Both the position numbers and the translations under genes were made by a program. The notes beneath the pieces were generated by a model. The model saw only the letters and a list, made by a program, of their open reading frames with translations, had not been told where the DNA came from and searched no databases. Of a stretch of DNA of 64,000 nt, positions 1 to 15,412 are shown piece after piece. This DNA is from Gammaproteobacteria bacterium (GTDB lineage: Bacteria > Pseudomonadota > Gammaproteobacteria > JABDBA01). The stretch is taken from assembly GCA_013288885.1 (NCBI GenBank), contig JABDBA010000009.1, forward strand, positions 4,713 to 68,712. The letters are read 5' to 3'. Each line of letters starts with the position of its first letter. Within the stretch, counting starts at the first letter, position 1.

Positions 1-429
1 TATATCACCTTTATCAAATTCATCTGAAATAAAATGTATCGTAACACCTGTTTTTTTTTCCCCATTGATTATAATGTATGGGCCACTTCGGTAACCTCTA
101 TATTTTGGCAATAATGTAGGGTGAACATTAATTGCATATTTTGCTTTATTGATAGCTTCTTTAGGTATCAAATAAGAAAAACCGCAAGATACCAATATTT
201 TATAATCAAGCTTTAATAGCGTCTCAGTAATATTACTCCGATCTACTTGTAAGACAGGCACACCAAATTCTATTGCCATAGCAATTACATTTTCAAACCG
301 CTTATTTTTTTCAGTTAAATAGGGTGTAACAACAGCTATAACTTGTCTTTTTTTTTCCAACAAAAAGCGAAGTGTATTCTCTCTCGCACCACCGGTCATA
401 AATAGAATATTCAACTCAACCTCCAACAT
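1..429 (-). CDS. Formyltransferase-family protein (Fmt/PurN-like N-terminal domain). Partial: the 3' end runs off the window.
   Basis: Reverse translation from the ATG at 429 gives MLEVELNILFMTGGAR...NVHPTLLPKYRGYRSGPYIIINGEKKTGVTIHFISDEFDKGDI. HPxLLPxYRG is the formyltransferase signature. It is absent from the ORF track because it is truncated at position 1. Confidence 0.6.
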   Translation of the reverse strand, partial: MLEVELNILFMTGGARENTLRFLLEKKRQVIAVVTPYLTEKNKRFENVIAMAIEFGVPVLQVDRSNITETLLKLDYKILVSCGFSYLIPKEAINKAKYAINVHPTLLPKYRGYRSGPYIIINGEKKTGVTIHFISDEFDKGDI

Positions 430-453
430 AAAAACCTTACGTCAAGTAAACAG

Positions 454-1491
454 TTAATTCGTTGCATTTGAATGCAACTCTGAAAATGGAAGTACGTAAA
501 AATTTGGAAATAAGGATAATAAATCGCTTGGAGTACGCGAAAGGAGCGAAAGATCGTTTACTTGAGTATAATAATAGTATCTTTTATCAATCGCACCCCA
601 CTTCTTTTTAAAGCGATAAACACCCTCCTGACTTTGCCATGTCCCCCCCCAATTCCACCATTTAAAACCACGCTGTGCGGCATTTTCCATTGCCGTGATA
701 ATAATCAACGGTATAGCTTGTAAGGAGCGATATTCTTCTTGGAGAGCAGGCGTAAAATACTCAACGGTCTTATTAAAATAAAAAAGTAATAATGCGGCAA
801 TTACTAACCCATCTTTTTTTGCAACAAACAAGTCATAATCCTCACCTGGTTTAAAATGCTTAGGGACCAGTGAAAAGAATTTTTCAGTTTTAAAAGAACC
901 TCCAATCGAACTAATATTAGTCTGATGAAGCTCTTTAAGACGAGGAAATGCTGAATGGTCTATGCTAACTTCAATTTCACTTGATAGAGCTTTTTTAATA
1001 TTTCTTCTTGCACTACCATCTATTCCATCTAAAAGTTTTTGTTGAATATTTTCCTCAACTGCTATAGATATATTAGTCCACTGACCAATACGGGAATCTG
1101 TATAATTATAAAGGAAGTTATTTTCCTTTTGTAAAAGCAAAGGATTGGTAACTACCGTTGCGGCAAGCACATTCGCAGCTCTGATAACTTCATTATAGAC
1201 GTTCACAAGTGCTTTTTCAGCTTCCGGTATAGTAGTTAAAATACCCCCATTACTTCCATAGTAAGGTAACGAATTATAGAGGCGCGAATCGGATTGTTGA
1301 TAATACATCAAAGGTAAAACACCCTTCACTTCCCCATCTTGTAATGCAAGTAAATATTGCTCCTCACAGCCCAACAACTCCTTAAGAAATCTTTTATATT
1401 TAATACTATAGTAAAAAAGAGACTGGGGATTACTTAACAAATAATCTTGATAAATATCTTCTAGTGCAGGACTAAGCAATTCTATTTTCAT
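454..1491 (-). CDS. FemAB-like / GNAT (Acetyltransf_6-type) aminoacyl- or acyl-transferase
   Basis: 345 aa. The C-terminal part (LFVAKKDGLVIAALLLFYFNKTVEYFTPA...RGFKWWNWGG...GVYRFKKKWGA) resembles FemAB-family proteins found in glycan loci. Confidence 0.5.
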   Translation of the reverse strand: MKIELLSPALEDIYQDYLLSNPQSLFYYSIKYKRFLKELLGCEEQYLLALQDGEVKGVLPLMYYQQSDSRLYNSLPYYGSNGGILTTIPEAEKALVNVYNEVIRAANVLAATVVTNPLLLQKENNFLYNYTDSRIGQWTNISIAVEENIQQKLLDGIDGSARRNIKKALSSEIEVSIDHSAFPRLKELHQTNISSIGGSFKTEKFFSLVPKHFKPGEDYDLFVAKKDGLVIAALLLFYFNKTVEYFTPALQEEYRSLQAIPLIIITAMENAAQRGFKWWNWGGTWQSQEGVYRFKKKWGAIDKRYYYYTQVNDLSLLSRTPSDLLSLFPNFYVLPFSELHSNATN

Positions 1492-1494
1492 AAG

Positions 1495-2733
1495 TTATTT
1501 TTTTGCAACATATAAGTATTGAGTATATGCATCATCAGCAGCGTTAACATGCTTCGTATAATCATCTACAGTAGATATCTGAATTAAAAACCGTTCTAGT
1601 ATTTTTATCGATTTTCGTTTTAACCAGGAATGTTTGTTCAGAAAACTATTTAGTCCACCCCAAAAATGCCAAGAAACAGGCAATTTTGCTGTGATATTGA
1701 GTAAATCAAAAAAACCAAGTGATTTATTAGAAAAAAAAGGGATAGCTTCCACTGTATTGAAACCAGCTTCCTTCAATTTACCAATCATAATTTCTTTTGA
1801 ATATAAAGAACAATGGAACGCATGTTTAATATCATAATTAGCATATTTCATTGCTGCTTTTTTTGAAAAAATCTTAAGGAAACGAACGAGCACCAGTGAT
1901 TTATAATAGTCTTCCCGAGGTGTTGTAAATAACAGCACGCCATCATCTTTCAACACACGATTTGCAAATTCGAATACGCCCTTTATATTAGGTATATGCT
2001 CTAAGACAGATATACTCACTATCTTATCGATTGTTTTGGAACCCAAACAAGAGGATGTTACATCCTCGCTTAAATGAAAATCATAATAATCTGTCCGACT
2101 AGCATATAGATCTATATTTATTTTTTTTATTGCTTCATATCCTTCGAATAAAACATTAAAAACATCCCCACCACCACCACCAATATCTAACACCACTCCC
2201 AATCTCTTTTCTGGAAGACTCTCTTTCAAAACTTTTATTTCCAATAATTTATGAATCGCCATTTCAGGAACATAACAATAGCTACTCGCTAACTGATGTA
2301 TAATTTTAGAGATAGCCGCATTAGAATACGATTGACGTCTTTTGAAAAAGAGCCAACAATAGCAATAGAAAAATATATAAATATAAAAAATAAAATAAAA
2401 ACATGCATTCAAACTTTTCTTGATAATTGAAATAAAACCCTGCAAACCGGGCTTCCATTGAACGTTCTCAATATAGGCAACCATGGGTGCAGTAATTTCA
2501 CCCAGATGTATAGTTTCTGCATACTTTTGATTAAAATTTGCTATTTTTTCTTTATTTATTACAGTAACACAATTAATTAAAACAGAGTCAACAACAGCTT
2601 TTTTATTACCACATTTACCACATTGAACAACAGCATCGATTGACTTACCATCAGATGATGTATTAAGAATTTTGATATTTAAATTATCAACATGATCAAC
2701 ACAACATGCCATATAATTCGTTAATTCAATCAT
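1495..2733 (-). CDS. Class I SAM-dependent methyltransferase with an N-terminal Cys-rich segment and an aromatic-rich TM segment
   Basis: SAM motif I VLDIGGGGGDVF, a CGKCGNKK zinc-ribbon-like motif, and the hydrophobic stretch FYFIFYIYIFFYCYCWLFF. Confidence 0.6.
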   Translation of the reverse strand: MIELTNYMACCVDHVDNLNIKILNTSSDGKSIDAVVQCGKCGNKKAVVDSVLINCVTVINKEKIANFNQKYAETIHLGEITAPMVAYIENVQWKPGLQGFISIIKKSLNACFYFIFYIYIFFYCYCWLFFKRRQSYSNAAISKIIHQLASSYCYVPEMAIHKLLEIKVLKESLPEKRLGVVLDIGGGGGDVFNVLFEGYEAIKKINIDLYASRTDYYDFHLSEDVTSSCLGSKTIDKIVSISVLEHIPNIKGVFEFANRVLKDDGVLLFTTPREDYYKSLVLVRFLKIFSKKAAMKYANYDIKHAFHCSLYSKEIMIGKLKEAGFNTVEAIPFFSNKSLGFFDLLNITAKLPVSWHFWGGLNSFLNKHSWLKRKSIKILERFLIQISTVDDYTKHVNAADDAYTQYLYVAKK

Positions 2734-2777
2734 TTAAATTTCTCTAAAATAGTTTATGAAGCCAATGATTTAAATAA

Positions 2778-4028
2778 TCAAGCACTCCAGTTTTTGTCAA
2801 TATGATCAACGCCCTCTATTACGAATTGCCTGCTGTTTTCCCGTTCATTAACCTTTTCTTCCCACATATCGCCGAATAAACTCCAAATATTACAGGTTTT
2901 ACATGCCTCATACTTATCCCACTTGCCCTCTAAATGCGCCCTACGCATTGCACTTAAACGTTCCCATGCTTCTATAAAAGTTATATCTCGGACATGCCCT
3001 AAGTAAGGCACACGATGATTCTCTTTCTCTGGAACATAATCGGGAACACTTGCTACACAGGGAGCATATTGTCCTGTCCACTGCAATTTAAAATGCATAA
3101 AAATAGAACCACAAGGATAGCGTTTTTCAGGTGCTTGGTGGATAGGCGTAAAACCAGCTTTTTCCCACTGTTGTTTGAGATTCCAATTGTCACCACCCCA
3201 ATTGCCTACTGGTCTAAACGCAACACCATCTATTTTTTTCATCCAATGTTCACGAAATTTTTTAAAATCCTCTTTAAGCTCTTGAAAGCCCAAGATATGA
3301 CTTGTGATTTTCATTTTTGATTTTTTCTCTTCACGGATTTCACAAATCCGTTCTAAATTTCTCCAAACGCGATCAAAATGATCAACTTGCATCATTTTTT
3401 CATAGGCTTGTCGAGTCGGCGCATCAAAACTATAAGAATAGTGATCTAAGCCCTCATCCATTAGCTCACGAATTTTATCCTCTTTAAAAAGAGAACCATT
3501 TGTTGCCATTACGATAGGGAGTTTAGGTCTAACTTGTTTCATTAATTTAATCGCAGGTACTAGATTAGGAGCAGATAATGTCTCAGAGTAAGATGAGATA
3601 TTTAGCATAAGATTTTCTTCTGGCATTTCAGAAAGTGCTTTCCGCAAAATATCCATATCAAGCCACCCTGCTTTTTCTGGTTTCTGTACCGATTGCGGAC
3701 AGAAAATGCAAGAGTGATTACAGGGCGCTACACCTAAAGTTACAGAAAAATTAGTCGGCAATTTCGTTTCACCGATAACTACTTTGGCGTAATTAAGTTT
3801 TTCCTCAGCTGTTCTAAATGGAGCAATCTTACCCAGCAAACCAAAATCTCTGATTTCTGCCTCTTGGGCGGCATCAATTTTTTCCTGAGCTGCAATTTTT
3901 TCCTGAACTGCATCAACCTGACTTAGATTTTCAGCCTGGTTAGACATTTGTGTTTCTTCAGCATTGGGCTGATTATTACTCGGCGATCCCATTAACCCTT
4001 TCAACCATCTCTTAAAATTCTGTCTCAT
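2778..4028 (-). CDS. Radical SAM enzyme (possibly with a SPASM-like C-terminal Cys cluster)
   Basis: CxxxCxxC motif in GVAPCNHSCIFCPQ. Additional C-terminal cysteines (CGSIF...APCVAS...CKTCNIW). Low-complexity Q/E/A-rich N-terminus. Confidence 0.75.
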   Translation of the reverse strand: MRQNFKRWLKGLMGSPSNNQPNAEETQMSNQAENLSQVDAVQEKIAAQEKIDAAQEAEIRDFGLLGKIAPFRTAEEKLNYAKVVIGETKLPTNFSVTLGVAPCNHSCIFCPQSVQKPEKAGWLDMDILRKALSEMPEENLMLNISSYSETLSAPNLVPAIKLMKQVRPKLPIVMATNGSLFKEDKIRELMDEGLDHYSYSFDAPTRQAYEKMMQVDHFDRVWRNLERICEIREEKKSKMKITSHILGFQELKEDFKKFREHWMKKIDGVAFRPVGNWGGDNWNLKQQWEKAGFTPIHQAPEKRYPCGSIFMHFKLQWTGQYAPCVASVPDYVPEKENHRVPYLGHVRDITFIEAWERLSAMRRAHLEGKWDKYEACKTCNIWSLFGDMWEEKVNERENSRQFVIEGVDHIDKNWSA

Positions 4029-4078
4029 ATTTTTCTCCCATCTATATTTAGTAAAGATTTTATTAAAAACGATTAACT

Positions 4079-5023
4079 TTAAGTTTTATTAGCAACCACA
4101 GTAATACCAGCATCTTGAACATTAATATGCTCAATTTTCAAACCAGCTTCACTACACCATTTTTTAATCTCTTCTGGAGTATGCCTCTGACAGTTAAGAG
4201 GTCTAAACCAATCAAAATTAACATGGTTCATTTCATCAAACGAATATTCTGGGCGATAATATAACTTGCAAATATTCCAATAGAAAAAACGTTGAATATC
4301 AAGTTTTCCTTTGTTGATACCCAAATAAGGAATATCTTCTGGTACATCTACATCGATATTAAGTTCACCCAATGCAATACCCAATTTTGTTAAAGGTTCT
4401 AACGCCCTCCATGCTTGCTCATCTGACATGACCTGTAGTTGCTGGCGAATATGATCATCAGTAAATTCACGGACTGTTGCTTTTTTTCGATAAACATAAA
4501 ATAGAAAACGGCCACCTACTCGCAATTTTTTCGCGAGCACTTTAATTGATTGTTCTGTGTTATCCGTATGATGTAGCACACCCTCTGAAAAAATTATATC
4601 GGTAGAGTTATCTGGGATTGGAATATCAAGTAAACTGGTTTTAATAAAATCACCTTGATATCCCGCTTCAGCAAATCGTTCTCTTGCCACATTAACTGCG
4701 TCAGAAATATCAACACCGAGATAATCATGGTTAGTTAAATATTTATCAAAAAAAAGTAACGCGGAGTGACCGGAACCACAACCCGCATCTAAAATTATTT
4801 TTCGATCGCCTGCTAACCATTTTTCCAATCGTGTTGGATCATTATCACAATAACGCTCATATAACCATTTCTTGGTAGATTCTTTGACCGCTTCAGATTC
4901 ATAGGTATCACGTTTAGCCCATTTAAAGCCAAACGTTTGCTCTGTTTGTGATTGCGCATCACTGTACGCAGAATCTACTTTGAATTCAGCTTCATTAACC
5001 CCTAGTCTTGCCAATGCTGACAT
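4079..5023 (-). CDS. Class I SAM-dependent methyltransferase
   Basis: Motif I ILDAGCGSGHSALLF and a post-I acidic residue (GVDIS). 314 aa. Confidence 0.7.
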   Translation of the reverse strand: MSALARLGVNEAEFKVDSAYSDAQSQTEQTFGFKWAKRDTYESEAVKESTKKWLYERYCDNDPTRLEKWLAGDRKIILDAGCGSGHSALLFFDKYLTNHDYLGVDISDAVNVARERFAEAGYQGDFIKTSLLDIPIPDNSTDIIFSEGVLHHTDNTEQSIKVLAKKLRVGGRFLFYVYRKKATVREFTDDHIRQQLQVMSDEQAWRALEPLTKLGIALGELNIDVDVPEDIPYLGINKGKLDIQRFFYWNICKLYYRPEYSFDEMNHVNFDWFRPLNCQRHTPEEIKKWCSEAGLKIEHINVQDAGITVVANKT

Positions 5024-5043
5024 GTCTCACCCTATTAAAAAAA

Positions 5044-6924
5044 TTAAACTCCATTATTTTTCAACCACTCCTCAAAATTCAACAACGACCAGATAAACAA
5101 ACGCCGATTTTGTTTACCTTCCAAATGCTCATTAACCAATGCCCGTACCGCCACCGGATTCATAAAGTCGTATATTCTAGCATGATTATCGAACACAATG
5201 CGCCTAACATAGTCAATACTTTCGCCTTTAAACCAAGAGGCATCCGGTGCCGAAAACCCTTTTTTCTCTGCAGAGGTGATTTTTTCTGGAATGTATCTTT
5301 GCATCACATCGCGTAATAATATTTTACCATCCTGGTTTTTTTCGAAATACTTGGCCGATTTTGGTCCCGGTTCATTTTCATTTAAGCATACTACTTCGGC
5401 AACATTTTTTAATTTCATTCTTACCGGCACTTGCATGGCAAAATCAACCAAATCGTTATCTAAAAACGGCACTCGGGTTTCTAGGCCATGCGCCATGCTC
5501 AACTTGTCTTCTACCACCAATAGCCCATGTAAAAAAGTTTTGGCTTCAAAATATAAAGAATGGTTCACGTAATCTTCCGGCTGCGTCAATTTAGCGGCAT
5601 GTTCGTGGAACACCCCCCGAAAAATATCACTGGTTTGAACATGTTTTACTTGATCCCAAATCGGTGCAAATACCCCTTGTAAAGCTGAATTGGGTATTAA
5701 TCGCTGCCAAAACTTATAATATTTATCGATATAATGGTCAAAATCATCATTGGCGACTGCTCGATAATAGCGCCACGGGTAGCCGGCAAATAACTCATCG
5801 CCGCCTGCCCCTGATAGCACTACTTTAACAAATTTCGAGGCTAATTTGGCTATATAATAATTAGGATAACTCTGCCCTACTCTTGGCTCTTCTAAATGAT
5901 AAGCCAATTTGGGCAGCACCCGCTCCATATCACCTGACTTTAATACCATTTCATAATGTTCAGTCTTAAAAAGATAAGACATATATTCGGCATGTTCACG
6001 CTCATCAAAGCCAAGCTCTAAACCCGAAGCCGATCGTAGATCAAAACCACAGGTAAACGTTTTCATAAAAGGGTGTTGGCGCGCTGCCAGTGCGGTGATA
6101 GAACCGGAATCCATACCGCCACTTAAATAACAGCCCACATCCACGTCACTCACTAACTGGCGATTAACTGCCTGGCTAAATAATCGATCCAACTCGTTGG
6201 CATATTCGGTTTCATGCAGTGGGTGCTTAGGTTCAGCAAAGTTAAAATCCCAATAGCGATACGGGTCCAATTTATTCGTTTCTTTTTTTAACGCTAATTT
6301 AGCCCAACAACCGGCGGGGAAAAGATGAATACCTTGTAACAGCGTTTTATCGGTAAAAATATTTTGAAAAGTAAAATATTCTAATAATGCTTCAACATCA
6401 ATATTGCGACGCAGATCAGGGTGGGCCAACAACGCTTTTTGTTCTGAACCAAATAAAAATGTTCCACCCATAAACGTATAATAGAGTGGCTTGATACCAT
6501 AACGATCACGCGCTAAAAATAATTCTTGCTGTGTTTTATCCCAAATCGCAAAAGCAAACATACCATTAAAACGATTAACACATTCAGCGCCCCATGCCAT
6601 ATAAGCATTGAGCACCACTTCTGAATCTGTTTTGGAATGAAAACGATGACCTAAACTTTCTAACTCTGCACGTAGTTCTTGAAAATTATATATTTCGCCA
6701 TTATAGGTAATCACATATTGATTATCGGATGTAACCATCGGTTGATGACCGGAAGCAGAAAGATCGATAATCGCTAAACGTCGATGCCCAAGCCCTACCG
6801 AGCCATCGATGAAAACACCTTCGCCATCAGGACCACGATGCGCAATAGCATCCATCATCCGTTTTAGAATAACCGGAGAAGCAGGTTGTTTATTGAAATT
6901 AACTATTCCGGTTATGCCGCACAC
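5044..6924 (-). CDS. Asparagine synthase (glutamine-hydrolysing)-family amidotransferase, probably for sugar amidation or amidino formation
   Basis: N-terminal MCGITGIV (Ntn Cys2), SGGMDS PP-loop, 626 aa. It sits inside a glycan locus and overlaps the upstream gene by 13 nt. Confidence 0.85.
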   Translation of the reverse strand: MCGITGIVNFNKQPASPVILKRMMDAIAHRGPDGEGVFIDGSVGLGHRRLAIIDLSASGHQPMVTSDNQYVITYNGEIYNFQELRAELESLGHRFHSKTDSEVVLNAYMAWGAECVNRFNGMFAFAIWDKTQQELFLARDRYGIKPLYYTFMGGTFLFGSEQKALLAHPDLRRNIDVEALLEYFTFQNIFTDKTLLQGIHLFPAGCWAKLALKKETNKLDPYRYWDFNFAEPKHPLHETEYANELDRLFSQAVNRQLVSDVDVGCYLSGGMDSGSITALAARQHPFMKTFTCGFDLRSASGLELGFDEREHAEYMSYLFKTEHYEMVLKSGDMERVLPKLAYHLEEPRVGQSYPNYYIAKLASKFVKVVLSGAGGDELFAGYPWRYYRAVANDDFDHYIDKYYKFWQRLIPNSALQGVFAPIWDQVKHVQTSDIFRGVFHEHAAKLTQPEDYVNHSLYFEAKTFLHGLLVVEDKLSMAHGLETRVPFLDNDLVDFAMQVPVRMKLKNVAEVVCLNENEPGPKSAKYFEKNQDGKILLRDVMQRYIPEKITSAEKKGFSAPDASWFKGESIDYVRRIVFDNHARIYDFMNPVAVRALVNEHLEGKQNRRLFIWSLLNFEEWLKNNGV

Positions 6925-8066
6925 CGGACACCTTTAATGGTTGCAACCACATATTCATAATCTTCCTTGGTCATTTTGTTGTGCAGTGGAATAGCCATTG
7001 AATAACGATCACAATCACGCGCACCGGGGAAATCATCTGGCGCTAAACCAAATTTTTGTTGATACAAACCTAGCATGTGCACAGCGTGTGTGCCAGGGCG
7101 CGTACTAATGCCTTTATTTTGTAAATATTCCATAATTGCGTTGCGCGGTAACGGCGCTTTGCTTTCATCTATGAAACAGACAAAAGACTGCCAACCATGC
7201 TGATAATCTTCGGGCGTAACAGGTGTACGCAGCCATTCAACACCCGCTAATTCTTTGCTGTAATAATCAGCCCAACGTTGACGTTCTGCAATAAATTGAT
7301 CTAGTTTTTTAAATTGCACAAGACCTATTGCACCTTGAAGATCAGTCATACGATAGTTAAAACCCAGCAAATTAAAATCAGCTAAAATATAAGGTCTAGG
7401 ACCATGATGTCTTTGCTCTTCAGAAATACTTGCGCCATGATTACGTAACATATTCATTTTTTCTGCTAAGGCATCATCATTAGTAGTTACCATGCCCCCT
7501 TCACCCGTAGTCACTGATTTACGCGGATGAAAGGAAAATGCTGCTGCTAACCCTAGTGCACCGGCTGATCGTTTTTTATAAAAACTACCCGATGCGCAAG
7601 CCGCATCTTCGAGCAATGGAATACCCGGTGCTACTTTTGTTAAAGCATCCATATCAGCACACAAACCAAATAAATGAACAGGAATAATCGCTTTGGTGCG
7701 CGGTGTAATTTTAGCTTTAACTTGTTTAATATCCAGATTATAAGTAAGCGGATCCACATCTACAAACACTGGTGTCGCACCACAAAACATCACTACATTG
7801 GCGGTTGCCACCCAGGTAAAAGCAGGCACGATCACTTCGTCACCAGGGCCAATATCAAGTGCCGCCAACATCAAATGTAAACCTGTCGTGCAACTGGTAA
7901 CGGCAAGTGCATGTTTTACTTGATGCCGTTGCGCAAATGCTTTTTCAAAAGCAGCCACTTTGGGGCCTTGCGTCAACCACCCGTTCATGATGGGTTCGCG
8001 TACGGCTTGCCATTCTTCTTCGCCCGTGGCTGGGGTTGATATCGATATATTGCGGATAGTTGCCAT
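6912..8066 (-). CDS. DegT/DnrJ/EryC1/StrS-family PLP sugar aminotransferase
   Basis: 384 aa with typical family blocks (VIVPAFTWVATAN, FSFHPRKSVTTGEGGM). Confidence 0.85.
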   Translation of the reverse strand: MATIRNISISTPATGEEEWQAVREPIMNGWLTQGPKVAAFEKAFAQRHQVKHALAVTSCTTGLHLMLAALDIGPGDEVIVPAFTWVATANVVMFCGATPVFVDVDPLTYNLDIKQVKAKITPRTKAIIPVHLFGLCADMDALTKVAPGIPLLEDAACASGSFYKKRSAGALGLAAAFSFHPRKSVTTGEGGMVTTNDDALAEKMNMLRNHGASISEEQRHHGPRPYILADFNLLGFNYRMTDLQGAIGLVQFKKLDQFIAERQRWADYYSKELAGVEWLRTPVTPEDYQHGWQSFVCFIDESKAPLPRNAIMEYLQNKGISTRPGTHAVHMLGLYQQKFGLAPDDFPGARDCDRYSMAIPLHNKMTKEDYEYVVATIKGVRCAA

Positions 8067-9076
8067 TATTCAATTCCTACAGCGGCACGCCGTTCTGCCA
8101 CTTCTTTTTTATGAGTATTACGCCATTCAATTAATTTTTTTAATCCTTCGCGCAAAGTAACCATGGCCTTAAAATTTATTTCTTTCTCTGATTTCACTGG
8201 GCTACCGATTCTATTTTTAACAAAGGTCATGCCAGCTGGTTCGTATTGAATTTTTTGACTAGAGCCGGTGATTTCTAAAATCAACTCAGTCAATTGCTTT
8301 ATCGTAGTTCGAATGCCCGTGCCTACGTTATAAAAATTATCAGTCGCTTCTGCTTTCATGGCGCAAACGTTTGCACTACCACAATCACCCACATAAACAA
8401 AATCATATGCTTGTGATCCGTCGCCATAAACTTGCGGTGGTAAATTTTGATCGAGGCGATCTAAAATTTTCATGATGACTGCAATATATGCGCCACGATA
8501 ATCTTGCCGCGCGCCGTATACATTCATGTAGCGCAAACCAGCGTAATCAAAATGTTGATCGGTTTTTTTATAACGATGATATAACGCACGACACATATGT
8601 TCGCCCGCAATCTTAGTAGCGCCATAAAAATTATTATTATTGTAAGGATGATCTTCGGTCATCGGTTCTTCGACGGCATCACCATAGACAGAGGCTGAAG
8701 AAGAATAAACCAAACGCTTAACCCCATTATTGACCACCGCTTCTAACACATTAAAAGTGCCGCCAATATTCACTTCAAAAGCCGAACGGGGATAATCATA
8801 GCAATGCAGCAACCAGAGTGCTGCGAAGTGAAAAACACCATCGATATCTTTCATCGCAGCGTTTAAAATATCTCGATGTAAAATGTCCCCACCTGCTGGG
8901 AAAATAGTAACGCGAGGATCTTTCAAAGCATCGATTATATTTTCGCGACTACCACGGGTGAAATTATCGTAGATACGAATTTCTTTGACATCTTCTTTTA
9001 ACAAGGCATCGACAGTGTGTGATCCGATAAGACCAGCACCACCGATTAATAATAAACGCTTACCATTGATATCCAT
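8066..9076 (-). CDS. NAD-dependent epimerase/dehydratase (extended SDR)
   Basis: Rossmann motif GGAGLIGSH and catalytic YGATKIAGE (YxxxK). Its stop overlaps the start of the downstream gene. Confidence 0.85.
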   Translation of the reverse strand: MDINGKRLLLIGGAGLIGSHTVDALLKEDVKEIRIYDNFTRGSRENIIDALKDPRVTIFPAGGDILHRDILNAAMKDIDGVFHFAALWLLHCYDYPRSAFEVNIGGTFNVLEAVVNNGVKRLVYSSSASVYGDAVEEPMTEDHPYNNNNFYGATKIAGEHMCRALYHRYKKTDQHFDYAGLRYMNVYGARQDYRGAYIAVIMKILDRLDQNLPPQVYGDGSQAYDFVYVGDCGSANVCAMKAEATDNFYNVGTGIRTTIKQLTELILEITGSSQKIQYEPAGMTFVKNRIGSPVKSEKEINFKAMVTLREGLKKLIEWRNTHKKEVAERRAAVGIE

Positions 9077-9107
9077 AGTTTTTTTGAGTTAGTTAAGTTA
9101 AGTAAAG

Positions 9108-10196
9108 TTAAATTGCTTCGCGCAAAGCAGTGATTATTTCTTGCATTTGCTTCTCACTCACATACGGATCCATCGGCAAACTCATCACGCGTTTTGCTGC
9201 TTGCTCGGAAACAGGAAAGCTGCCTTCTTTTAGATTTAGCGGGGCAAACACTTGTTGCATATGCAATGGGATTGGATAATGCACAGCCGTAGGAACACCT
9301 ACTGTTTTAAGTTTTTCTTGCACTTTTTCGCGGTTATCCACTTGCACGGTATATTGCGCATAGACACTGGTGTTGCCTTCTGCAACATGAGGCACAGTCA
9401 CATAATCTTTGAGTAAATCGCTGTAACGCGCACCAATACGCGCACGGTCGATAACCTCTTCGGGGAAGATTTCTAATTTCGCCAATAGAATCGCCGCTTG
9501 TAAAGTATCTAAACGACTGTTCATTCCGAGCAAACGATGATGATAACGTTTGTCTTGGCCATGCACACGAATTTGCCGCATATCAGTAGCGAGTTGATCG
9601 TCATTGGTAAAACATGCACCACCATCGCCGTAACAACCCAAAGGTTTAGAGGGGAAAAAGCTGGTGCTACCAATGGTAGAAAGATTGCAGGATTTTTTGC
9701 CTTTATACATTGCTCCAAAACTTTGCGCAGCATCTTCGATAACAGGAATTTTGTGTTTGTTAGCAATCGCGTTAATCGCATCCATATCCGCACATTGACC
9801 ATATAAAGAAACCGGCATAATGGCTTTGGTTTTAGGTGTAATAGCTTGTTCGATTTTTTTAGGGTCGATGTTAAAGGTTTTGGGGTCAATATCGACAAAA
9901 ACAGGCTTAGCGCCCATTAAGGCAATCATTTCACCCGTGGCAATAAAGGTAAAAGGCGTAGTAATGACTTCATCCCCAGCTTTAATGCCCAACGCCATCA
10001 TTGATACCATTAAACTATCAGTACCATTGGCCATAGTGATACAGTGTTTAGCCCCTACGTAATTGGCTAGTTTCTCTTCCAATTCCTGAACTTCCGGCCC
10101 CATAATGAATTGGCCATGTTCCAATACGGTTTTAATGCGTTTGTTAACTTTTTCTTCAATGCGTCGATATTGGGTCTTCAGGTCAATAAATTGCAT
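9108..10196 (-). CDS. wbpE: DegT-family aminotransferase, WbpE-like (UDP-2-acetamido-2-deoxy-3-oxo-glucuronate aminotransferase)
   Basis: 362 aa DegT-family sequence (MQFIDLKTQY..., SFFPSKPLGCYGDGG). The locus also has WbpA/B/D-like genes. Confidence 0.7.
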   Translation of the reverse strand: MQFIDLKTQYRRIEEKVNKRIKTVLEHGQFIMGPEVQELEEKLANYVGAKHCITMANGTDSLMVSMMALGIKAGDEVITTPFTFIATGEMIALMGAKPVFVDIDPKTFNIDPKKIEQAITPKTKAIMPVSLYGQCADMDAINAIANKHKIPVIEDAAQSFGAMYKGKKSCNLSTIGSTSFFPSKPLGCYGDGGACFTNDDQLATDMRQIRVHGQDKRYHHRLLGMNSRLDTLQAAILLAKLEIFPEEVIDRARIGARYSDLLKDYVTVPHVAEGNTSVYAQYTVQVDNREKVQEKLKTVGVPTAVHYPIPLHMQQVFAPLNLKEGSFPVSEQAAKRVMSLPMDPYVSEKQMQEIITALREAI

Positions 10197-10508
10197 AGTT
10201 TAGAGCCTCATTGGGTAGTTTTTAGGGTTATTGGGTCAGTATTTTACCCTAAATTAGGGCGGGTGGACAGAGTAAATCTAGTATCGCAGGAAAGAATAAT
10301 CACTAAAAAACCTGCTGGAATGGTTATAGCAATTCCAGCAACCACCCTATAAAAGCTGACAAAATTTAATTTAAAGCGTGCAAACTCACCCGCTATCCCT
10401 AAGGTTTACTTATAGATAACAACCTGTTATATTGCCCATGCTTTCTTTGATTTCCGCAACCAGAAAGAAAATTTCACTTTAAATTAATTTTTAACAGAAG
10501 GGGTTTTT

Positions 10509-10925
10509 ATGCAAATTTTAAAAAATTTTTCTAAACTAGCTTGTTTATCACTGTTGTTGATTAGCAGTTATGCTATGGCTAGCCAGAGTGTATCATTTTA
10601 TGGAAATTTAAATAACTTAACAGGTGATAATATTAAGCAAATTATGCTGGGTGATCTTGGCGCTAAACTTTTAATAAGCCTACCTGTTCACTCCGGTCAG
10701 ACCGTTCCTTTTACTCTATACCCTTCAGAATATGATGCCAATGGCGCCTTCTTATTTATCTTTGGTAATAAGACCAACTGTGCTGTCAGTTACAACAGTA
10801 ATGGTTTATTCTTGGGTGCTACCCCCTCGTGTTTAGATAAGAACTATAATCTTTCTCTTTCTGGCAATCCAACAAATGGCTTCACTATTACGATAACTAA
10901 TATATCTAAACCTGCTGCCAAATAG
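10509..10925 (+). CDS. Small secreted protein of unknown function
   Basis: Signal peptide MQILKNFSKLACLSLLLISSYAMA|SQ, GAAGGGG upstream of the ATG, and a rho-independent terminator right after the stop. Confidence 0.55.
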   Translation: MQILKNFSKLACLSLLLISSYAMASQSVSFYGNLNNLTGDNIKQIMLGDLGAKLLISLPVHSGQTVPFTLYPSEYDANGAFLFIFGNKTNCAVSYNSNGLFLGATPSCLDKNYNLSLSGNPTNGFTITITNISKPAAK

Positions 10926-10950
10926 CATTAAAAGATTTATTTATTTTTCC

Positions 10951-10987
10951 AGCCCCTTTTTTCTTGATCGAAAAAAGGGGCTTTTTT
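10951..10987 (+). terminator. Rho-independent terminator
   Basis: AGCCCCTTTT-loop-AAAAGGGGCT stem followed by TTTTTT. Confidence 0.65.
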
Positions 10988-11060
10988 ATAACAGTTGAAA
11001 ATTAGTCATTCAATTCTTCTCCTAAAGCAGCATTGCTGCCATAAACAAAATCCAAAATAA

Positions 11061-11438
11061 GTTTCTTCTATAAATCTTAATGAGAAATTTCTAGTCAAGC
11101 TGTTTCCATGGCTCAATGTCATTGAAATTCAGGAAGGCTCGAATTTTATTAAAATTCTGTTAAAATATGTGGTAGATGGGGTAGAAGCCAACAATGAAAC
11201 GGTGTTTATTGAAAAAGCAGAACAATATTTATCAGATGAATTAAGGAGTGAAACAATGACATTAGCACAATTATTTGAGAAAAAAGGTATGGAGAAAGGA
11301 TTGGAACAGGGCTTGCAAGAAGGCCGGCAAGAAGTGGCGCTGCGTATGCTAAAAGAAGGGTTAGGCATGGATTTGATTACTAAACTAACGGGCTTGTCGG
11401 AAGAAAATATTGTAAAACTACAAGAGCATGTAGATTAG
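11061..11438 (+). pseudogene. 5'-truncated fragment of an Rpn-family (YhgA-like) recombination-promoting nuclease / putative transposase
   Basis: The open frame from 11061 has no plausible full-length start. The C-terminal part MTLAQLFEKKGMEKGLEQGLQEGRQEVALRMLKEGLGMDLITKLTGLSEENIVKLQE matches the characteristic Rpn C-terminal tail. The nuclease domain is missing. Confidence 0.6.
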
Positions 11439-11468
11439 GCATGTTTTTTGCCGCAATCTACCTATGAT

Positions 11469-11513
11469 GCTCAAATCCCCCCTAGCCCCCCTTTTTCAAA
11501 GGGGGGAACAGGA
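11469..11513 (+). repeat. Hairpin repeat family A, variant 1 (AAATCCCCCCTAGCCCCCC-TTTTTCAAA-GGGGGGAACAGG)
   Basis: C6/G6 stem with a 9-nt loop. The same sequence occurs at 25712-25754 and, inverted, at 19698-19743. Confidence 0.9.
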
Positions 11514-12216
11514 TATCCGCCAACACCGGCACATGTTCATCTTGTTGCGGGGTGGGCATTTCTAAGCGAGAAAATTCATTGCTGTTGGGCAACTCAAACG
11601 TAAAGTGAGATAATTTCTGTAACGATATCAAACCTTCTGCCAATTCAAAATCAAGCACGTGGCCGCCGATCGTTTGGGTGTTATCAATGAAATGAAAATG
11701 ATAGCCGGGCATTTTAATATGTTCCATGTAATCGGGTGCGAAGAATCCGATGGCGTCGCCTTGGATGTTATGTAAATCAAATTCCCTGCTTTCATCGATA
11801 ATTTCTTTGATAGTTTTATAGGGCTTTGTTTGTTTAGGCACGCTGGCTATTTTTAGCTTAGAAAATTTTCCGCTGATATGAATTGCTAATAAAAAATTTT
11901 TGCTGCCAATTTGTTTTTCAATGCTTGCTTTGAGGTTTTCTAGACGAGTATTAGTAGTGATATTAATATTCAAATCATTATTAAATTTGCAAACTGCTGC
12001 CCAACAAAGGCGTGAACTTGCAGAAGCTAATTGTGCTTTGCCGTTAGTGCAGTGGAAAAATTTTCCGTGCAGTGCAATTAATTCACCTTCGAGTGCATTG
12101 AAAGAACCTAAACCAAAATCACCGCGTTGTTGTAGGTTGGGGAGTGAAAGATCGCCGTCGTACAAGCCGTTTTGCACGGCGATGAAAGTGGAGTATTGGT
12201 ACAGTGTATTTGACAT
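11482..12216 (-). CDS. budA: Alpha-acetolactate decarboxylase
   Basis: N-terminus LYQYSTFIAVQNGLYDGDLSL...GDFGLGSFNALEGELIALHGKFFH is typical AlsD/BudA. The last residues FPPLKKGG and the stop are encoded by repeat A. Confidence 0.8.
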   Translation of the reverse strand: MSNTLYQYSTFIAVQNGLYDGDLSLPNLQQRGDFGLGSFNALEGELIALHGKFFHCTNGKAQLASASSRLCWAAVCKFNNDLNINITTNTRLENLKASIEKQIGSKNFLLAIHISGKFSKLKIASVPKQTKPYKTIKEIIDESREFDLHNIQGDAIGFFAPDYMEHIKMPGYHFHFIDNTQTIGGHVLDFELAEGLISLQKLSHFTFELPNSNEFSRLEMPTPQQDEHVPVLADILFPPLKKGG

Positions 12217-12218
12217 CG

Positions 12219-12275
12219 CAAAATCCCCCCGCCTCGCTTAGCGCTCGTCGGCCCCCTTTTTCAAAGGGGGCGACA
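12219..12275 (+). repeat. Hairpin repeat family A, variant 2 (AAATCCCCCCGCCTCGCTTAGCGCTCGNCGGCCCCC-TTTTTCAAA-GGGGGC)
   Basis: A near-identical copy lies at 19773-19826. This copy ends 3 nt upstream of the budA start codon. Confidence 0.9.
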
Positions 12276-12317
12276 GCCTTAATTCTGCAGCAACGTCTTT
12301 AAGAGTGTAAACAATTC

Positions 12318-12896
12318 CTAATCAACCCTACACTCATTGCCCACCACAGTATATTTCATCCCCGTATGCGGGCAAACCACTGATTCGCCTTTGCCGTGCA
12401 GTGGTAGTTCTAAACGTTCGCCGTATTGGCTCATCCAACCGATTTGTTTGCCGGGCACGCCGACGATTAATGCGTAATCGGGCACATCGCGGTTCACTAC
12501 ACTGCCCGCGCCGATAAACGCATATTGGCCAACTGTGTTACCGCAAACGATGGTGCAGTTTGCGCCTAATGTCGCGCCTTTTTTGATGAGTGTATCGCGA
12601 TATTCATCTTTGCGGCTTACTGCCGAACGTGGATTATAAACATTGGTGAACACCATGCTGGGCCCGCAGAATACATCGTCTTCGATAGTCACATTGTCGT
12701 AGACAGAAACATTGTTTTGTACTTTGACATTATCGCCAATGATTACTTTATTGCCGACATAAACATTTTGTCCGAAACTACAGCGTGCACCAATTTTTGC
12801 ATTGCCAGAAATGTGTACCCAATGCCAAATGCGCGTATCAGCACCGATTTGTGCACCGTCGTCGACGATAGCTGTGGGGTGAGCTTTATAAGTCAT
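12318..12896 (-). CDS. wbpD: Left-handed beta-helix N-acetyltransferase, WbpD-like (UDP-2-acetamido-3-amino-2,3-dideoxy-glucuronate N-acetyltransferase)
   Basis: 192 aa. [24 protein letters not shown] and hexapeptide repeats. Adjacent to a WbpB-like gene. Confidence 0.75.
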
Positions 12897-12898
12897 AA

Positions 12899-13957
12899 TT
12901 AAATCTCAAGTGGTAATGTTATCGTTTTATCATCACGTGCAGCTAAATAAGCCGCCGTGAGAATTTCTAATGATTTAAGACCTTCGCGACCATCGGTTTC
13001 TGGTTCAGCTTGGCCGCGCAACACATCCACCACATTTTGATAATACGCAATATGGCCGCTGCCTAATAACGAAGTGGTTTCTTGTGTGGCTTGGACAATT
13101 TGTTCATCTTCAGGTTGTTTATCGGCAAATTCCCAATGTTGAATTTCGTTCACCGCTAAACCACCTAATTTTACCGAGCCTTTTTCACCTAAAATAGTTA
13201 AGGAACCTTCGAGATTTTTAGGATAGGTTAACATCGTCACATTCATCGAACCCATCGCGCCCGAACGCCAGCGAAGATTTAATACACCGGTGTCTTCAAC
13301 TTCGACATTGCGCCCTAACGTACCCATCATCGCTTGCACGCTTTGCACCGGGCCGCACAACCAATCTAATAAATCTACATAATGGCTGGCTTGATTCATA
13401 AACGCACCACCGTCAAACTCCCAAGTACCACGCCATTTTGCTTGATCATAATATGCTTGTGGACGCGTCCAAAAAACATTGAGATTGATCATATAAAGCC
13501 GACCAAAACGATTTTTTTGCATGGCTTGCTTAACGAGTTGTAATGTTGCATTGAGACGATTTTGTTTAACCACAAATAAACGCACACCGGCTTTATCGCA
13601 AGCATCGATCATCGCTATGCCATCTTTCCAACGCGTGGCCATTGGTTTTTCCGTAATTACATGTTTGCCTAAATTAGCAATCGCGATGGTTTGTTGTGCA
13701 TGTACGCCACTGGGTGTACATAGCGTAATAATATCGGGGTCGGTTTTTGCACTCAGCTCAGCAATTTCAGCATAGCCTGGCGCACCGGTTTGCTCCACTG
13801 CTTTTTGCAAAGTTTCGGCATGACCATCACACACGCCAACCAATTCTAATTGATCAGATAATTTTGCAATCGCATTTAAATGATTAGTAGCAATTTTACC
13901 GCAACCCACTAGAGCAATTCGTACTTTTCTGTTTTTTGAAATATTTATATTTTTCAT
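12899..13957 (-). CDS. wbpB: Gfo/Idh/MocA oxidoreductase, WbpB-like (UDP-GlcNAcA 3-dehydrogenase)
   Basis: N-terminal Rossmann motif [15 protein letters not shown]. 352 aa. Context with WbpA/D/E-like genes. Confidence 0.7.
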
Positions 13958-14101: not shown

Positions 14102-15412
14102 CTACGCTTTAATAATGTTCTTCTCATTCACACTATGATAAACACCGCGCGTATCTACAATTAACTGCGCATTTTGTTTGATCATTTCAAAATCAAACTC
14201 ATCATGGGCCGTTGCTAATACCACACAATCATATTTTTTCAAGTTCGCGGGTGTAATCGGCACACTGCTTAAATCAAAATGATGTTCACGTGTCGGCGGA
14301 AATACCGGAACATGCGGATCGGTATAATCTACTTTTGCGCCTTTACTAACGAGTAACTCCATCAACGTCACCGAAGGCGACTCACGCATATCATCCACAT
14401 TTTTCTTATAGGCAATTCCCAATACTAAAATATTGCTGTCTTTCAACGCTTTGCCGCGATCATTCAACGCATCGGTGACTTTATGAATCACCCACTTCGG
14501 CATATTGCTATTAATTTCACCCGCCAATTCGATGAAACGGGTATGCACGCCAAATTCACGCGCTTTCCACGTTAAATAAAAAGGATCGATCGGAATACAA
14601 TGACCGCCGATACCAGGGCCTGGATAATAAGGCACAAAACCAAACGGTTTAGTTGCCGCCGCATTGATCACTTCAAAAATATCGATGCCCATTTTATCAG
14701 CGACTACTTTCATCTCATTCACTAAACCAATGTTAACGGCGCGATGGATATTTTCTAATAGTTTTGTCATTTCAGCAGCACGGGTAGAACTCACCGGCAC
14801 TACGCGCGTAATCACTTGATTATACAGAGCCAAACCTGCTTCCAAACAATTAGCCGTGTCGCCACCACACACTTTAGGAATAGTTGCTGTCACAAATTCT
14901 GGGTTACCAGGATCTTCGCGCTCAGGAGAAAATACCAGGAAAATATCTTCACCCACTTTCAGACCATTCTTTTCAATACGCGGTTTTAATTCTTCATCGG
15001 TGGTGCCAGGATAAGTCGTGCTCTCTAATGAAATCACTTGGCCTTTACGTATATACGGTAAAAGCGCATCGGTCGTTTCCAACACAAAACTTAAATCCGG
15101 TTCACGATATTTATTCAACGGCGTTGGTACGCATAAAATTAAAGCGTCGGCTTCTTGTGCTTTAGAAAAATCAGTCGTGGCTTGCAGGTTTTTTTGTACC
15201 GCAGAAATGCGATCGCTTTTGATATGTTTAATATAGCTTTGACCTTTATTTAATTTGGTGACTTTGTCTTGGTCAATATCGATACCCATCACTTTATAAC
15301 CCACATTGGCATAACGCAGCATGAGTGGTAAACCCACGTAGCCGAGACCGACAATGCCGATGATGGCGGTTTTGTTATTGAGTTTTTCGAGTAATTGCGA
15401 TTTAGTGGTCAT
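14102..15412 (-). CDS. wbpA: Nucleotide-sugar 6-dehydrogenase, WbpA-like (UDP-GlcNAc 6-dehydrogenase)
   Basis: 436 aa. [12 protein letters not shown]ossmann motif and catalytic Cys region GGHCIPIDP. Confidence 0.8.

Follow-up and report, generated by a model that had tools for sequence, protein, structure and literature searches.

The closest described relative of the system studied here is the wbm locus of Bordetella. In Bordetella bronchiseptica, the O-chain is a homopolymer of L-GalNAc3NAcA(N) capped by a derivative of 2,3,4-triamino-2,3,4-trideoxy-galacturonamide, and this triamino sugar has been reported only as a cap (PMC2615507). The locus has wzm and wzt, through which the chain is exported, as well as three glutamine-dependent amidotransferase genes (wbmC, wbmI, and wbmZ), and uronamide formation has been ascribed, as a proposal, to the wbmZ-position gene (PMC2615507). 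For the genes in the middle of the locus, which vary with serotype, a role in modifying the terminal sugar is predicted, and the variable regions are reported to have a lower GC content (PMC3849452). The capping sugar defines the serotype in Bordetella, and we found no gene-by-gene assignment for the triamino-uronamide cap in the literature. Here we describe a run of eight genes at the start of a 64,000-nucleotide stretch of DNA (the window; C9:4713-68712, where C9 is contig JABDBA010000009.1) from a gammaproteobacterial assembly (GCA_013288885.1; 2.59 Mb in 49 contigs, 84% complete).

Together with the DNA before it (C9:1-4712) and a second contig of the same genome, C42, this run at window 1-9076 on balance probably represents the tailoring and export half of an ABC-transporter-dependent polysaccharide locus of wbm type, for an O-antigen or a capsule; this estimate includes the pathway proposed below. 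Loci and contigs fetched for comparison are numbered L003-L033, and P0012 denotes a fused relative.

The gene run and its Bordetella counterparts

Eight successive minus-strand open reading frames (ORFs) lie back to back in window 1-9076. They were taken from the ORF list, and their families were assigned by Pfam and NCBIfam:

1-429, minus strand: FT257, formyltransferase (Formyl_trans_N); the N-terminal 143 codons, the gene running off the window start (full gene C9:4368-5141, minus strand, 257 aa; Formyl_trans_N 90.6 bits for the full protein)
454-1491, minus strand: FemAB345, FemAB-like transferase (FemAB / Acetyltransf_6), 345 aa
1495-2733, minus strand: MT412, class I SAM methyltransferase, 412 aa (Methyltransf_23, 59.5 bits)
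2778-4028, minus strand: rSAM416, Radical_SAM protein with a SPASM/twitch-type C-terminal part, 416 aa
4079-5023, minus strand: MT314, class I SAM methyltransferase, 314 aa (Methyltransf_11, 62.6 bits)
5044-6924, minus strand: AsnB626, GATase_6/7 plus Asn_synthase, 626 aa (Asn_synthase 320 bits, GATase_7 172 bits)
6912-8066, minus strand: AT384, DegT aminotransferase, 384 aa (DegT_DnrJ_EryC1, 403 bits)
8066-9076, minus strand: SDR336, short-chain dehydrogenase/reductase (SDR) of the extended type, epimerase family, GalE/WbpP-like, 336 aa (Epimerase, 162.5 bits)

AT384 and AsnB626 overlap by 13 nt (6912-6924) and SDR336 and AT384 by 1 nt (8066), and the remaining intergenic gaps are 3-50 nt. 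The genes are intact and keep their catalytic motifs. An earlier reading of the window, made from the letters alone (the sequence-only reading), had named the same eight genes, families, and overlaps, and our results support its description of closely packed genes, downstream of wbpE, that form a module for tailoring an amino sugar. GC content is 31-39% in the tailoring genes and 40-44% in the SDR-DegT-AsnB triad, against 40.5% for the genome.

The cluster had also been expected to continue past the window start, and the upstream DNA bore this out, with five more genes beyond the split FT257. These 4.7 kb hold the rest of FT257, followed by a 252-aa protein, GT471, GNAT181, ABC390, and a fragment of a second ABC ATPase gene:

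upstream of the window: GT471, divergent glycosyltransferase (GT), 471 aa, weak GT4 match
upstream of the window: GNAT181, 181 aa
upstream of the window: ABC390, Wzt-like ABC ATPase, 390 aa
C9:1-329: first 319 bases, plus strand, part of a second wbm-type ABC ATPase, then a 10-N scaffold gap

The apparent convergent orientation of the second ATPase relative to ABC390 may be a scaffolding artefact. The C-terminal 140 aa of ABC390 share 36% identity with the Bordetella ATPase and 25-36% with the ATPases of other Wzt-type cassettes. The GT471 family, 7 of whose 13 members match Glycos_transf_1 (best 6e-7), tracks Wzt-type loci and is absent from the two loci with other export systems (L031 and L032). 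Three PF01061 matches elsewhere in the assembly belong to other systems. Contig C42 (L033 1-4050) belongs to this locus as well and encodes a 621-aa protein that is a second AsnB paralogue, part of a counterpart of the 792-aa wbm protein from Bordetella, a partial GT4 glycosyltransferase, and a 246-aa protein without a Pfam match.

The Bordetella locus was reached through a 236-aa protein family, found in three related loci, that matched the Pfam family PF22537 'WbmS-like' (5e-50) and the structure of WbmS in the PDB (3HFT, 8e-44). The WbmS residues of the 3HFT alignment led to an identical 256-aa protein (100% to 3HFT) and from there to its contig, L021. In order, L021 encodes SDR325, DegT386, AsnB637, SDR307, a metallophosphatase, an ATP-grasp protein, MT382, WbmS, FT309, a 432-aa protein, ABC389 (faint Wzt_C), ABC402, an ABC-2 permease, the 792-aa protein, and a large GT. 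Counterparts in our genome had the following identities:

AsnB626 and AsnB637 (wbmZ position): 69% over 622 aa
AT384 and DegT386: 69%
SDR336 and SDR325: 56%
ABC390 and ABC389: 52%
second ABC fragment and ABC402: 77%
GT471 and the 432-aa protein (WbmQ position): 38%
FT257 and FT309: 25%
C42 fragment and the 792-aa protein: 49%

The SDR, DegT, and AsnB orthologues align along almost their whole length and stand in the same order at the BB0120-proximal end of the Bordetella locus; by position they would correspond to wbmBB, wbmAA, and wbmZ, according to the gene order in PMC3849452. Both systems also need a 2,3-diacetamido-uronic acid precursor pathway, have a formyltransferase beside a protein of deacetylase fold (predicted, in our locus), and have tailoring genes of lower GC content. 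By contrast, tblastn found no counterpart in our genome of SDR307, the metallophosphatase, the PylC-like ATP-grasp protein, MT382, or WbmS. In their place our locus has FemAB345, MT314, the MT412 and rSAM416 pair, FT257, the 252-aa protein, and GNAT181. Because the Bordetella tailoring set is absent, we regard the locus as a variant of the wbm type rather than as an identical locus type.

The sequence-only reading knew of no characterized pathway with this exact gene set. This stands for the combination as a whole, which we found neither in the literature on characterized systems nor among NCBIfam equivalogs (TIGR01536 aside), but not for the backbone, which is 38-77% identical to Bordetella wbm. 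That reading was to be given up if the same set turned up beside a solved, ordinary glycan; Bordetella shares part of the set, and its glycan is not ordinary. The backbone is of a known kind (wbm-type). What is new is the tailoring set, in which a FemAB-like transferase is tied to the core, a formyltransferase goes with a CE4-like protein, and a methyltransferase is paired with a radical SAM enzyme. For the pairing or fusion of methyltransferase and radical SAM enzyme we found no characterized precedent.

Recurrence of the cassette in other genomes

The module occurs beyond our genome, as a cassette conserved in several phyla. A close relative on a Logan contig and a locus of Bradyrhizobium sp. 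CB3481 have the same set of SDR, DegT, methyltransferase, AsnB, FemAB-like, formyltransferase, and radical SAM genes, joined in both cases by a WbqC gene, and the Bradyrhizobium locus also encodes an ABC-2 permease and two ABC ATPases. Scanning 185,579 species genomes for the gene pattern gave 15 more loci, which came from Stellaceae, Hyphomicrobiales, Rhodospirillales, Zoogloeaceae, one Gammaproteobacterium, Nitrospirota, Planctomycetota, Methylomirabilota, and a metagenome-assembled genome labelled Cyanobacteria. Relatives of rSAM416 at 50-70% identity occur in many lineages, some of them fused to a methyltransferase. A genome search within the taxonomic order of our organism returned its own genome as the sole hit. 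We counted the gene families by tblastn and ORF clustering in 18 sequences, namely the 17 fetched loci and our own contig:

rSAM: 16/18 loci
AsnB: 13/18 loci
FemAB-like: 13/18 loci
471-aa GT family: 12/18 loci
WbqC: 12/18 loci
ABC ATPases, usually two: 12/18 loci
DegT: 11/18 loci
formyltransferase: 11/18 loci
MT412 family: 10/18 loci
MT314 family: 9/18 loci
ABC-2 permease: 9/18 loci
252-aa family: 8/18 loci, plus 6 as a fusion
SDR: 7/18 loci, counted inside 10-kb flanks

In at least 16 genomes, belonging to several phyla, the cassette keeps its gene order, and we found none of these cassettes characterized. Because the order is conserved across phyla, the gene set is beyond chance. The WbqC-family gene (PF08889), present in 12 radical SAM-type cassettes (among L003-L020), is absent from our assembly and from the Bordetella locus.

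Two further loci, L031 and L032, were examined for relatives of FemAB345. In both, the FemAB gene (51-55% identical) follows an SDR-DegT-AsnB block whose members are 63% (SDR), 35-47% (DegT), and 63-67% (AsnB) identical to our proteins. A hexapeptide acetyltransferase and a small methyltransferase replace the formyltransferase, methyltransferase, and radical SAM genes, and the export context consists of an MsbA/PglK-like ABC protein in L031 and of Wzc and Wzx in L032. SDR-DegT-AsnB-FemAB is a core that recurs with different export systems. The core spans Alpha-, Beta-, and Gammaproteobacteria, Nitrospirota, Planctomycetota, Methylomirabilota, and Cyanobacteria-like lineages, with three export systems. 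This comparison splits a conserved core (SDR, C4 aminotransferase, and AsnB) from interchangeable tailoring sets and yields testable assignments for cap genes. Bradyrhizobium sp. CB3481 is a cultured carrier, in which experiments are feasible.

A proposed pathway and its alternatives

Next to the run, the window encodes the enzymes of a diacetamido-uronic acid pathway:

9108-10196, minus strand: WbpE-type 3-aminotransferase (DegT, 424 bits)
12318-12896, minus strand: WbpD-type hexapeptide N-acetyltransferase (Hexapep match)
12899-13957, minus strand: WbpB-type GFO/IDH/MocA 3-dehydrogenase (GFO_IDH_MocA N- and C-terminal domains)
14102-15412, minus strand: WbpA-type UDP-sugar 6-dehydrogenase (all three UDPG_MGDP_dh domains)

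These are the four families of the Pseudomonas aeruginosa WbpA/B/E/D(/I) and Bordetella WlbA-D pathways, with the same logic. Such a pathway would supply the presumed substrate and is not the tailoring module itself. In the assembly, which is 84% complete, no WbpI-type 2-epimerase was found. Of the 13 cassette-bearing genomes, 12 have a WbpD orthologue (55-62%), mostly less than 8 kb from the cassette, and WbpE orthologues (42-47%) lie directly upstream of the SDR gene or the cassette in L024-L027, L030, and L031. Where the stretch after WbpE was fetched (L026 and L027), it holds an SDR336 orthologue (62-64%), and in L029 a WbpA orthologue (55%) adjoins WbpE and WbpD. The order of the flank elsewhere, GFO-type oxidoreductase plus WbpD, then WbpE, then the cassette, is the same as in the window. 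Gene neighborhood couples WbpD and WbpE to the cassette.

A lack of linkage between the cassette and the diacetamido pathway had been considered, with WbpB detected at E<=1e-30 in 3 of 13 carriers and far from the cassette. We rejected it as a threshold artefact because the WbpB counterparts are 22-25% identical and often lie in one frame with WbpD. In L024-L027, L030, and most other carriers, a WbpD-like domain and a GFO-type oxidoreductase share one frame of 533-557 aa, which looks like a WbpB-WbpD fusion. In our genome, an insert of 2.1 kb (10197-12317) parts wbpD from wbpE; it holds budA (encoding alpha-acetolactate decarboxylase, at 11482-12216) as well as 1285 nt of DNA with a small plus-strand ORF. 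Because WbpD and WbpE are adjacent in other carriers, this insert is specific to our genome; wbpE and the tailoring genes may need a promoter of their own. A promoter and terminator scan of 1-12400 gave counts no higher than in shuffled sequences and was uninformative.

We then considered the core triad. SDR336 has a GGAGLIGS motif and GalE-like SSAS-VYG...YGATK motifs, and its top PDB matches are 6dnt, 4zrm, and WbgU/WbpP. Because it has no TDE motif of 4,6-dehydratases, the UDP-4-keto-6-deoxy substrate put forward in the sequence-only reading is unlikely; the sugar would keep its C6, consistent with AsnB626 acting on a uronic acid. We propose that SDR336 is a C4 oxidase or epimerase. A WbmF/G/H-type epimerase was also considered for SDR336 and rejected, as WbmF (2pzj) is distant (8.6e-23) and the true counterpart is the first gene of L021. 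The nearest solved structures of AT384 are C4 aminotransferases, perosamine synthetase (4.5e-80) and ArnB (3.7e-79), whereas WbpE, a C3 enzyme, is much more distant (8.6e-49); from these relationships we propose that AT384 acts at C4. AsnB626 begins with a GTG start followed by Cys ((M)CGI), as expected for the nucleophile at the N terminus of class II amidotransferases, contains SGGMDS, and passes the generic asparagine synthase model TIGR01536 (479 bits vs a cut-off of 267). Its context argues for a sugar carboxylate rather than aspartate as the substrate. By analogy, we propose that it is a glutamine-dependent AsnB-type amidotransferase forming a C6 carboxamide (uronamide). Uronamide-forming AsnB homologues include WbpS of P. 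aeruginosa O6, WbqG of Escherichia coli O121, and WbtH of Francisella. AsnB626 resembles them in being a full-length glutamine-dependent AsnB-type protein in an O-antigen locus with uronic acid precursors; this likeness is one of description, and the closest relative compared by sequence is the wbmZ-position gene.

In the pathway we propose, WbpA/B/E/D would provide UDP-2,3-diacetamido-2,3-dideoxy-hexuronic acid (UDP-GlcNAc3NAcA). SDR336 would oxidize C4 (or epimerize it) to give a 4-keto (or 4-epi) intermediate, AT384 would put an amino group on C4, and AsnB626 would convert the C6 carboxylate to a carboxamide, giving a 2,3,4-triamino-2,3,4-trideoxy-hexuronamide core like the Bordetella cap sugar. 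FemAB345 would acylate the new N4 amine, probably with an amino acid from aminoacyl-tRNA. FT257 would N-formylate and the CE4-like 252-aa protein would deacylate, either to exchange acetyl for formyl or in a cycle of formylation and deformylation like that of the Arn pathway. Methyl and acetyl groups would come from MT314 and GNAT181, and the MT412-rSAM416 pair may couple a radical step to methylation, on the sugar or on a side chain. Because a fully substituted 2,3,4-triamino-uronamide would leave the ring without free hydroxyls, methylation and the radical step would likely act on nitrogen atoms or the side chain of the acyl group. GT471, in the WbmQ position, would attach the completed residue to the chain, where it would most likely form the non-reducing-end terminator; the Wzt-like ATPase would bind this residue via its C-terminal domain, and the chain would be exported.

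The same pathway could instead make the triamino-uronamide as a residue of the repeat unit, or as a whole homopolymer, of a capsule or O-antigen and not only as a cap, a reading that we consider rather unlikely but a real contender. The Wzc-like protein and Wzx flippase of L032 and the MsbA/PglK-like protein of L031 belong to systems adding residues to repeat units, few GTs are visible in our locus, and C42 carries a second AsnB paralogue. Against this, our locus has the Bordetella-type set of two ATPases (one Wzt-like), a WbmQ-position GT, and a 792-aa-like protein, the GT471 family follows Wzt-type loci, and the Bordetella triamino sugar is reported as a cap only (PMC2615507). An independent Arn-like pathway, in which the SDR would oxidize (and perhaps decarboxylate) a common UDP-uronic acid, AT384 would make a 4-amino sugar, FT257 would formylate it, and the CE4-like protein would deformylate it after transfer, the WbpA-E product being separate, appears improbable. 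ArnA and ArnD form a known formylation/deformylation pathway, and the fusion of formyltransferase and CE4-like proteins in other loci parallels its logic. Both systems combine an SDR with a DegT aminotransferase of C4 type, an N-formyltransferase, and a hydrolase of CE4 fold (predicted, in our locus); AT384 is very near ArnB, FT257 is near the ArnA formyltransferase domain (1e-22), and SDR336 matches UDP-glucuronate decarboxylases in the PDB search (about 1e-27). They differ in that our locus has no decarboxylase motif (SSAS in SDR336, T-S-E in decarboxylases), has an AsnB, and lies in another genomic context, with the WbpD-WbpE-SDR order kept across phyla; the ArnB and ArnA equivalog cut-offs in NCBIfam are not reached (NF008658, 310.7 vs 631 bits; NF005998, 51.6 vs 777 bits). 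The Arn-like alternative is further weakened because a decarboxylated sugar would give AsnB626 no carboxylate, yet AsnB is the most conserved component (63-69%).

The sequence-only reading had also allowed for amidino formation by AsnB626, that is, a WbpG/PseA-like conversion of an N-acetyl substituent to an acetamidino (amidine) group. Amidino sugars do occur in related O-antigens, and HisH/HisF-like genes in L032 suggest amidine chemistry in some relatives. AsnB626, however, is a full-length class II glutamine amidotransferase/asparagine synthase that passes TIGR01536, and the wbmZ-position gene, to which it is 69% identical, is a proposed uronamide former (PMC2615507). We therefore consider an amidine very improbable and a C6 carboxamide the more likely product, as proposed for the wbmZ-position gene.

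Several points weigh against the wbm-type cap reading that we prefer. A cap role is not universal for the core, because the L032 block sits in a Wzx/Wzc-type locus. The C-terminal part of ABC390 matches Wzt_C at E 0.0029 (18 bits vs the Pfam cut-off of 30.4), the ABC-2 permease of the locus is absent from the assembly (the contig ends at the 10-N gap), and the WbpB counterparts beside WbpD elsewhere share only 22-25% identity. SDR336 could be a plain 4-epimerase. The step assignments for the triad rest on family specificity and on gene content matched to a known structure; in the literature we found no biochemical characterization of any triad enzyme, including those of Bordetella. The FemAB fold also covers non-tRNA acyltransferases (CelD/BcsL-type), and the aminoacyl-tRNA donor of FemAB345 is putative. 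Among public sequencing runs, the region was present in one DNA run (soil metagenome) and in no RNA run.

The tailoring enzymes

FemAB345, FT257, and the MT412-rSAM416 pair might together build an undescribed decoration: a tRNA-derived amino acid on N4, N-formylated and then remodelled by the radical SAM enzyme and methyltransferase. We put this forward tentatively, as a possible but doubtful outcome. FemAB345 matches PF02388 (52.4 bits; cut-off 24) and PF13480 (40.8 bits; cut-off 22), falls below the cut-off of the XrtA/PEP-CTERM-associated model TIGR03019 (101 vs 260.35 bits), and has 1429 relatives at E<1e-20. Its sole PDB sequence match is weak (6snr, E 0.03). Weissella FemX, an aminoacyl-tRNA-dependent member of the FemX/FemABX group, works on a UDP-linked substrate. 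FemAB345 shares the FemAB and Acetyltransf_6 domains with this group, and a UDP-linked amine would be a plausible acceptor; it differs in sitting in a Gram-negative glycan locus and in that its donor is only predicted. If the prediction is true, the making of Gram-negative surface glycans would include a tRNA-dependent step in which a nucleotide sugar is aminoacylated.

The nearest solved relatives of FT257 are Met-tRNA formyltransferase (4iqf, 6e-29) and, more distantly, the ArnA domain. In an alignment of 10 sequences, its catalytic Asn-His-Asp residues (N101, H103, and D139) do not vary; this PF00551 member reaches no NCBIfam equivalog cut-off. Six other loci encode 470-aa proteins (F14) that join a formyltransferase-like domain to a member of the 252-aa family. 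The 252-aa protein itself has no Pfam or PDB sequence match. Its AlphaFold2 model (pLDDT 88.4) matches CE4 enzymes at E about 2e-5 with TM 0.4-0.57, and the residues conserved in the family (RHDxD, H109, H148-N-P, D182-S-N, and H209-P) are not the canonical NodB motifs. On the strength of the model, we keep this protein as CE4-like, with a predicted CE4/NodB-like fold. Homology of the 252-aa protein to WbmS was also considered and rejected, as hhalign against the WbmS family gave a probability of 1.9%, with resemblance at motif level only.

rSAM416 exceeds the cut-offs of PF04055 (56.7 vs 29.5 bits) and of the SPASM family PF13186 (25.9 vs 21.5 bits). The cysteines of its cluster motif CNHSCIFC (C103, C107, and C110) are invariant. 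The only further invariant cysteines are C306, C324, C376, and C379, so that the full 7-Cys SPASM motif is not present; this pattern suggests one auxiliary cluster (twitch-like) rather than two. BtrN is the sole PDB sequence match. The top fold matches of its AlphaFold2 model (pLDDT 83.8) are DesII, BtrN, EpeE, MoaA, and BlsE (E 7e-11 to 9e-10). The fold is nearest to the sugar-acting enzymes DesII, BtrN, and BlsE, of which DesII uses a 4-amino sugar made by a DegT enzyme, but identity to them is 13-17% and TM about 0.45 when normalized to the query. None of these three enzymes is known to be paired with or fused to a class I methyltransferase, whereas the rSAM416 family is. The orthologue group is tight, with about 5 full-length representatives at 50% clustering, after which identity falls to 30-35%. 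The first ~70 codons of rSAM416 encode a Gln/Glu/Ala-rich helical extension (pLDDT 50-67), and most orthologues have no extension of such length.

The MT412 family (F9) adjoins the radical SAM gene in most loci and is fused to it in P0012 (696 aa; 29% identity over 242 aa). The methyltransferase part of P0012 is nearer to MT412 (E 4e-25) than to MT314 (5e-09). A PDB sequence search with MT412 returned nothing, and the PDB relatives of MT314 are generic methyltransferases only. The MT314 family (F10) usually sits between the DegT and AsnB genes. MT412 has an additional N-terminal region of ~170 aa, with two Cys pairs (CCVDH ... CGKCGN) and a strongly hydrophobic segment at residues ~108-127, which most of its orthologues (335-357 aa) do not have; this region could be a zinc ribbon with a membrane anchor.

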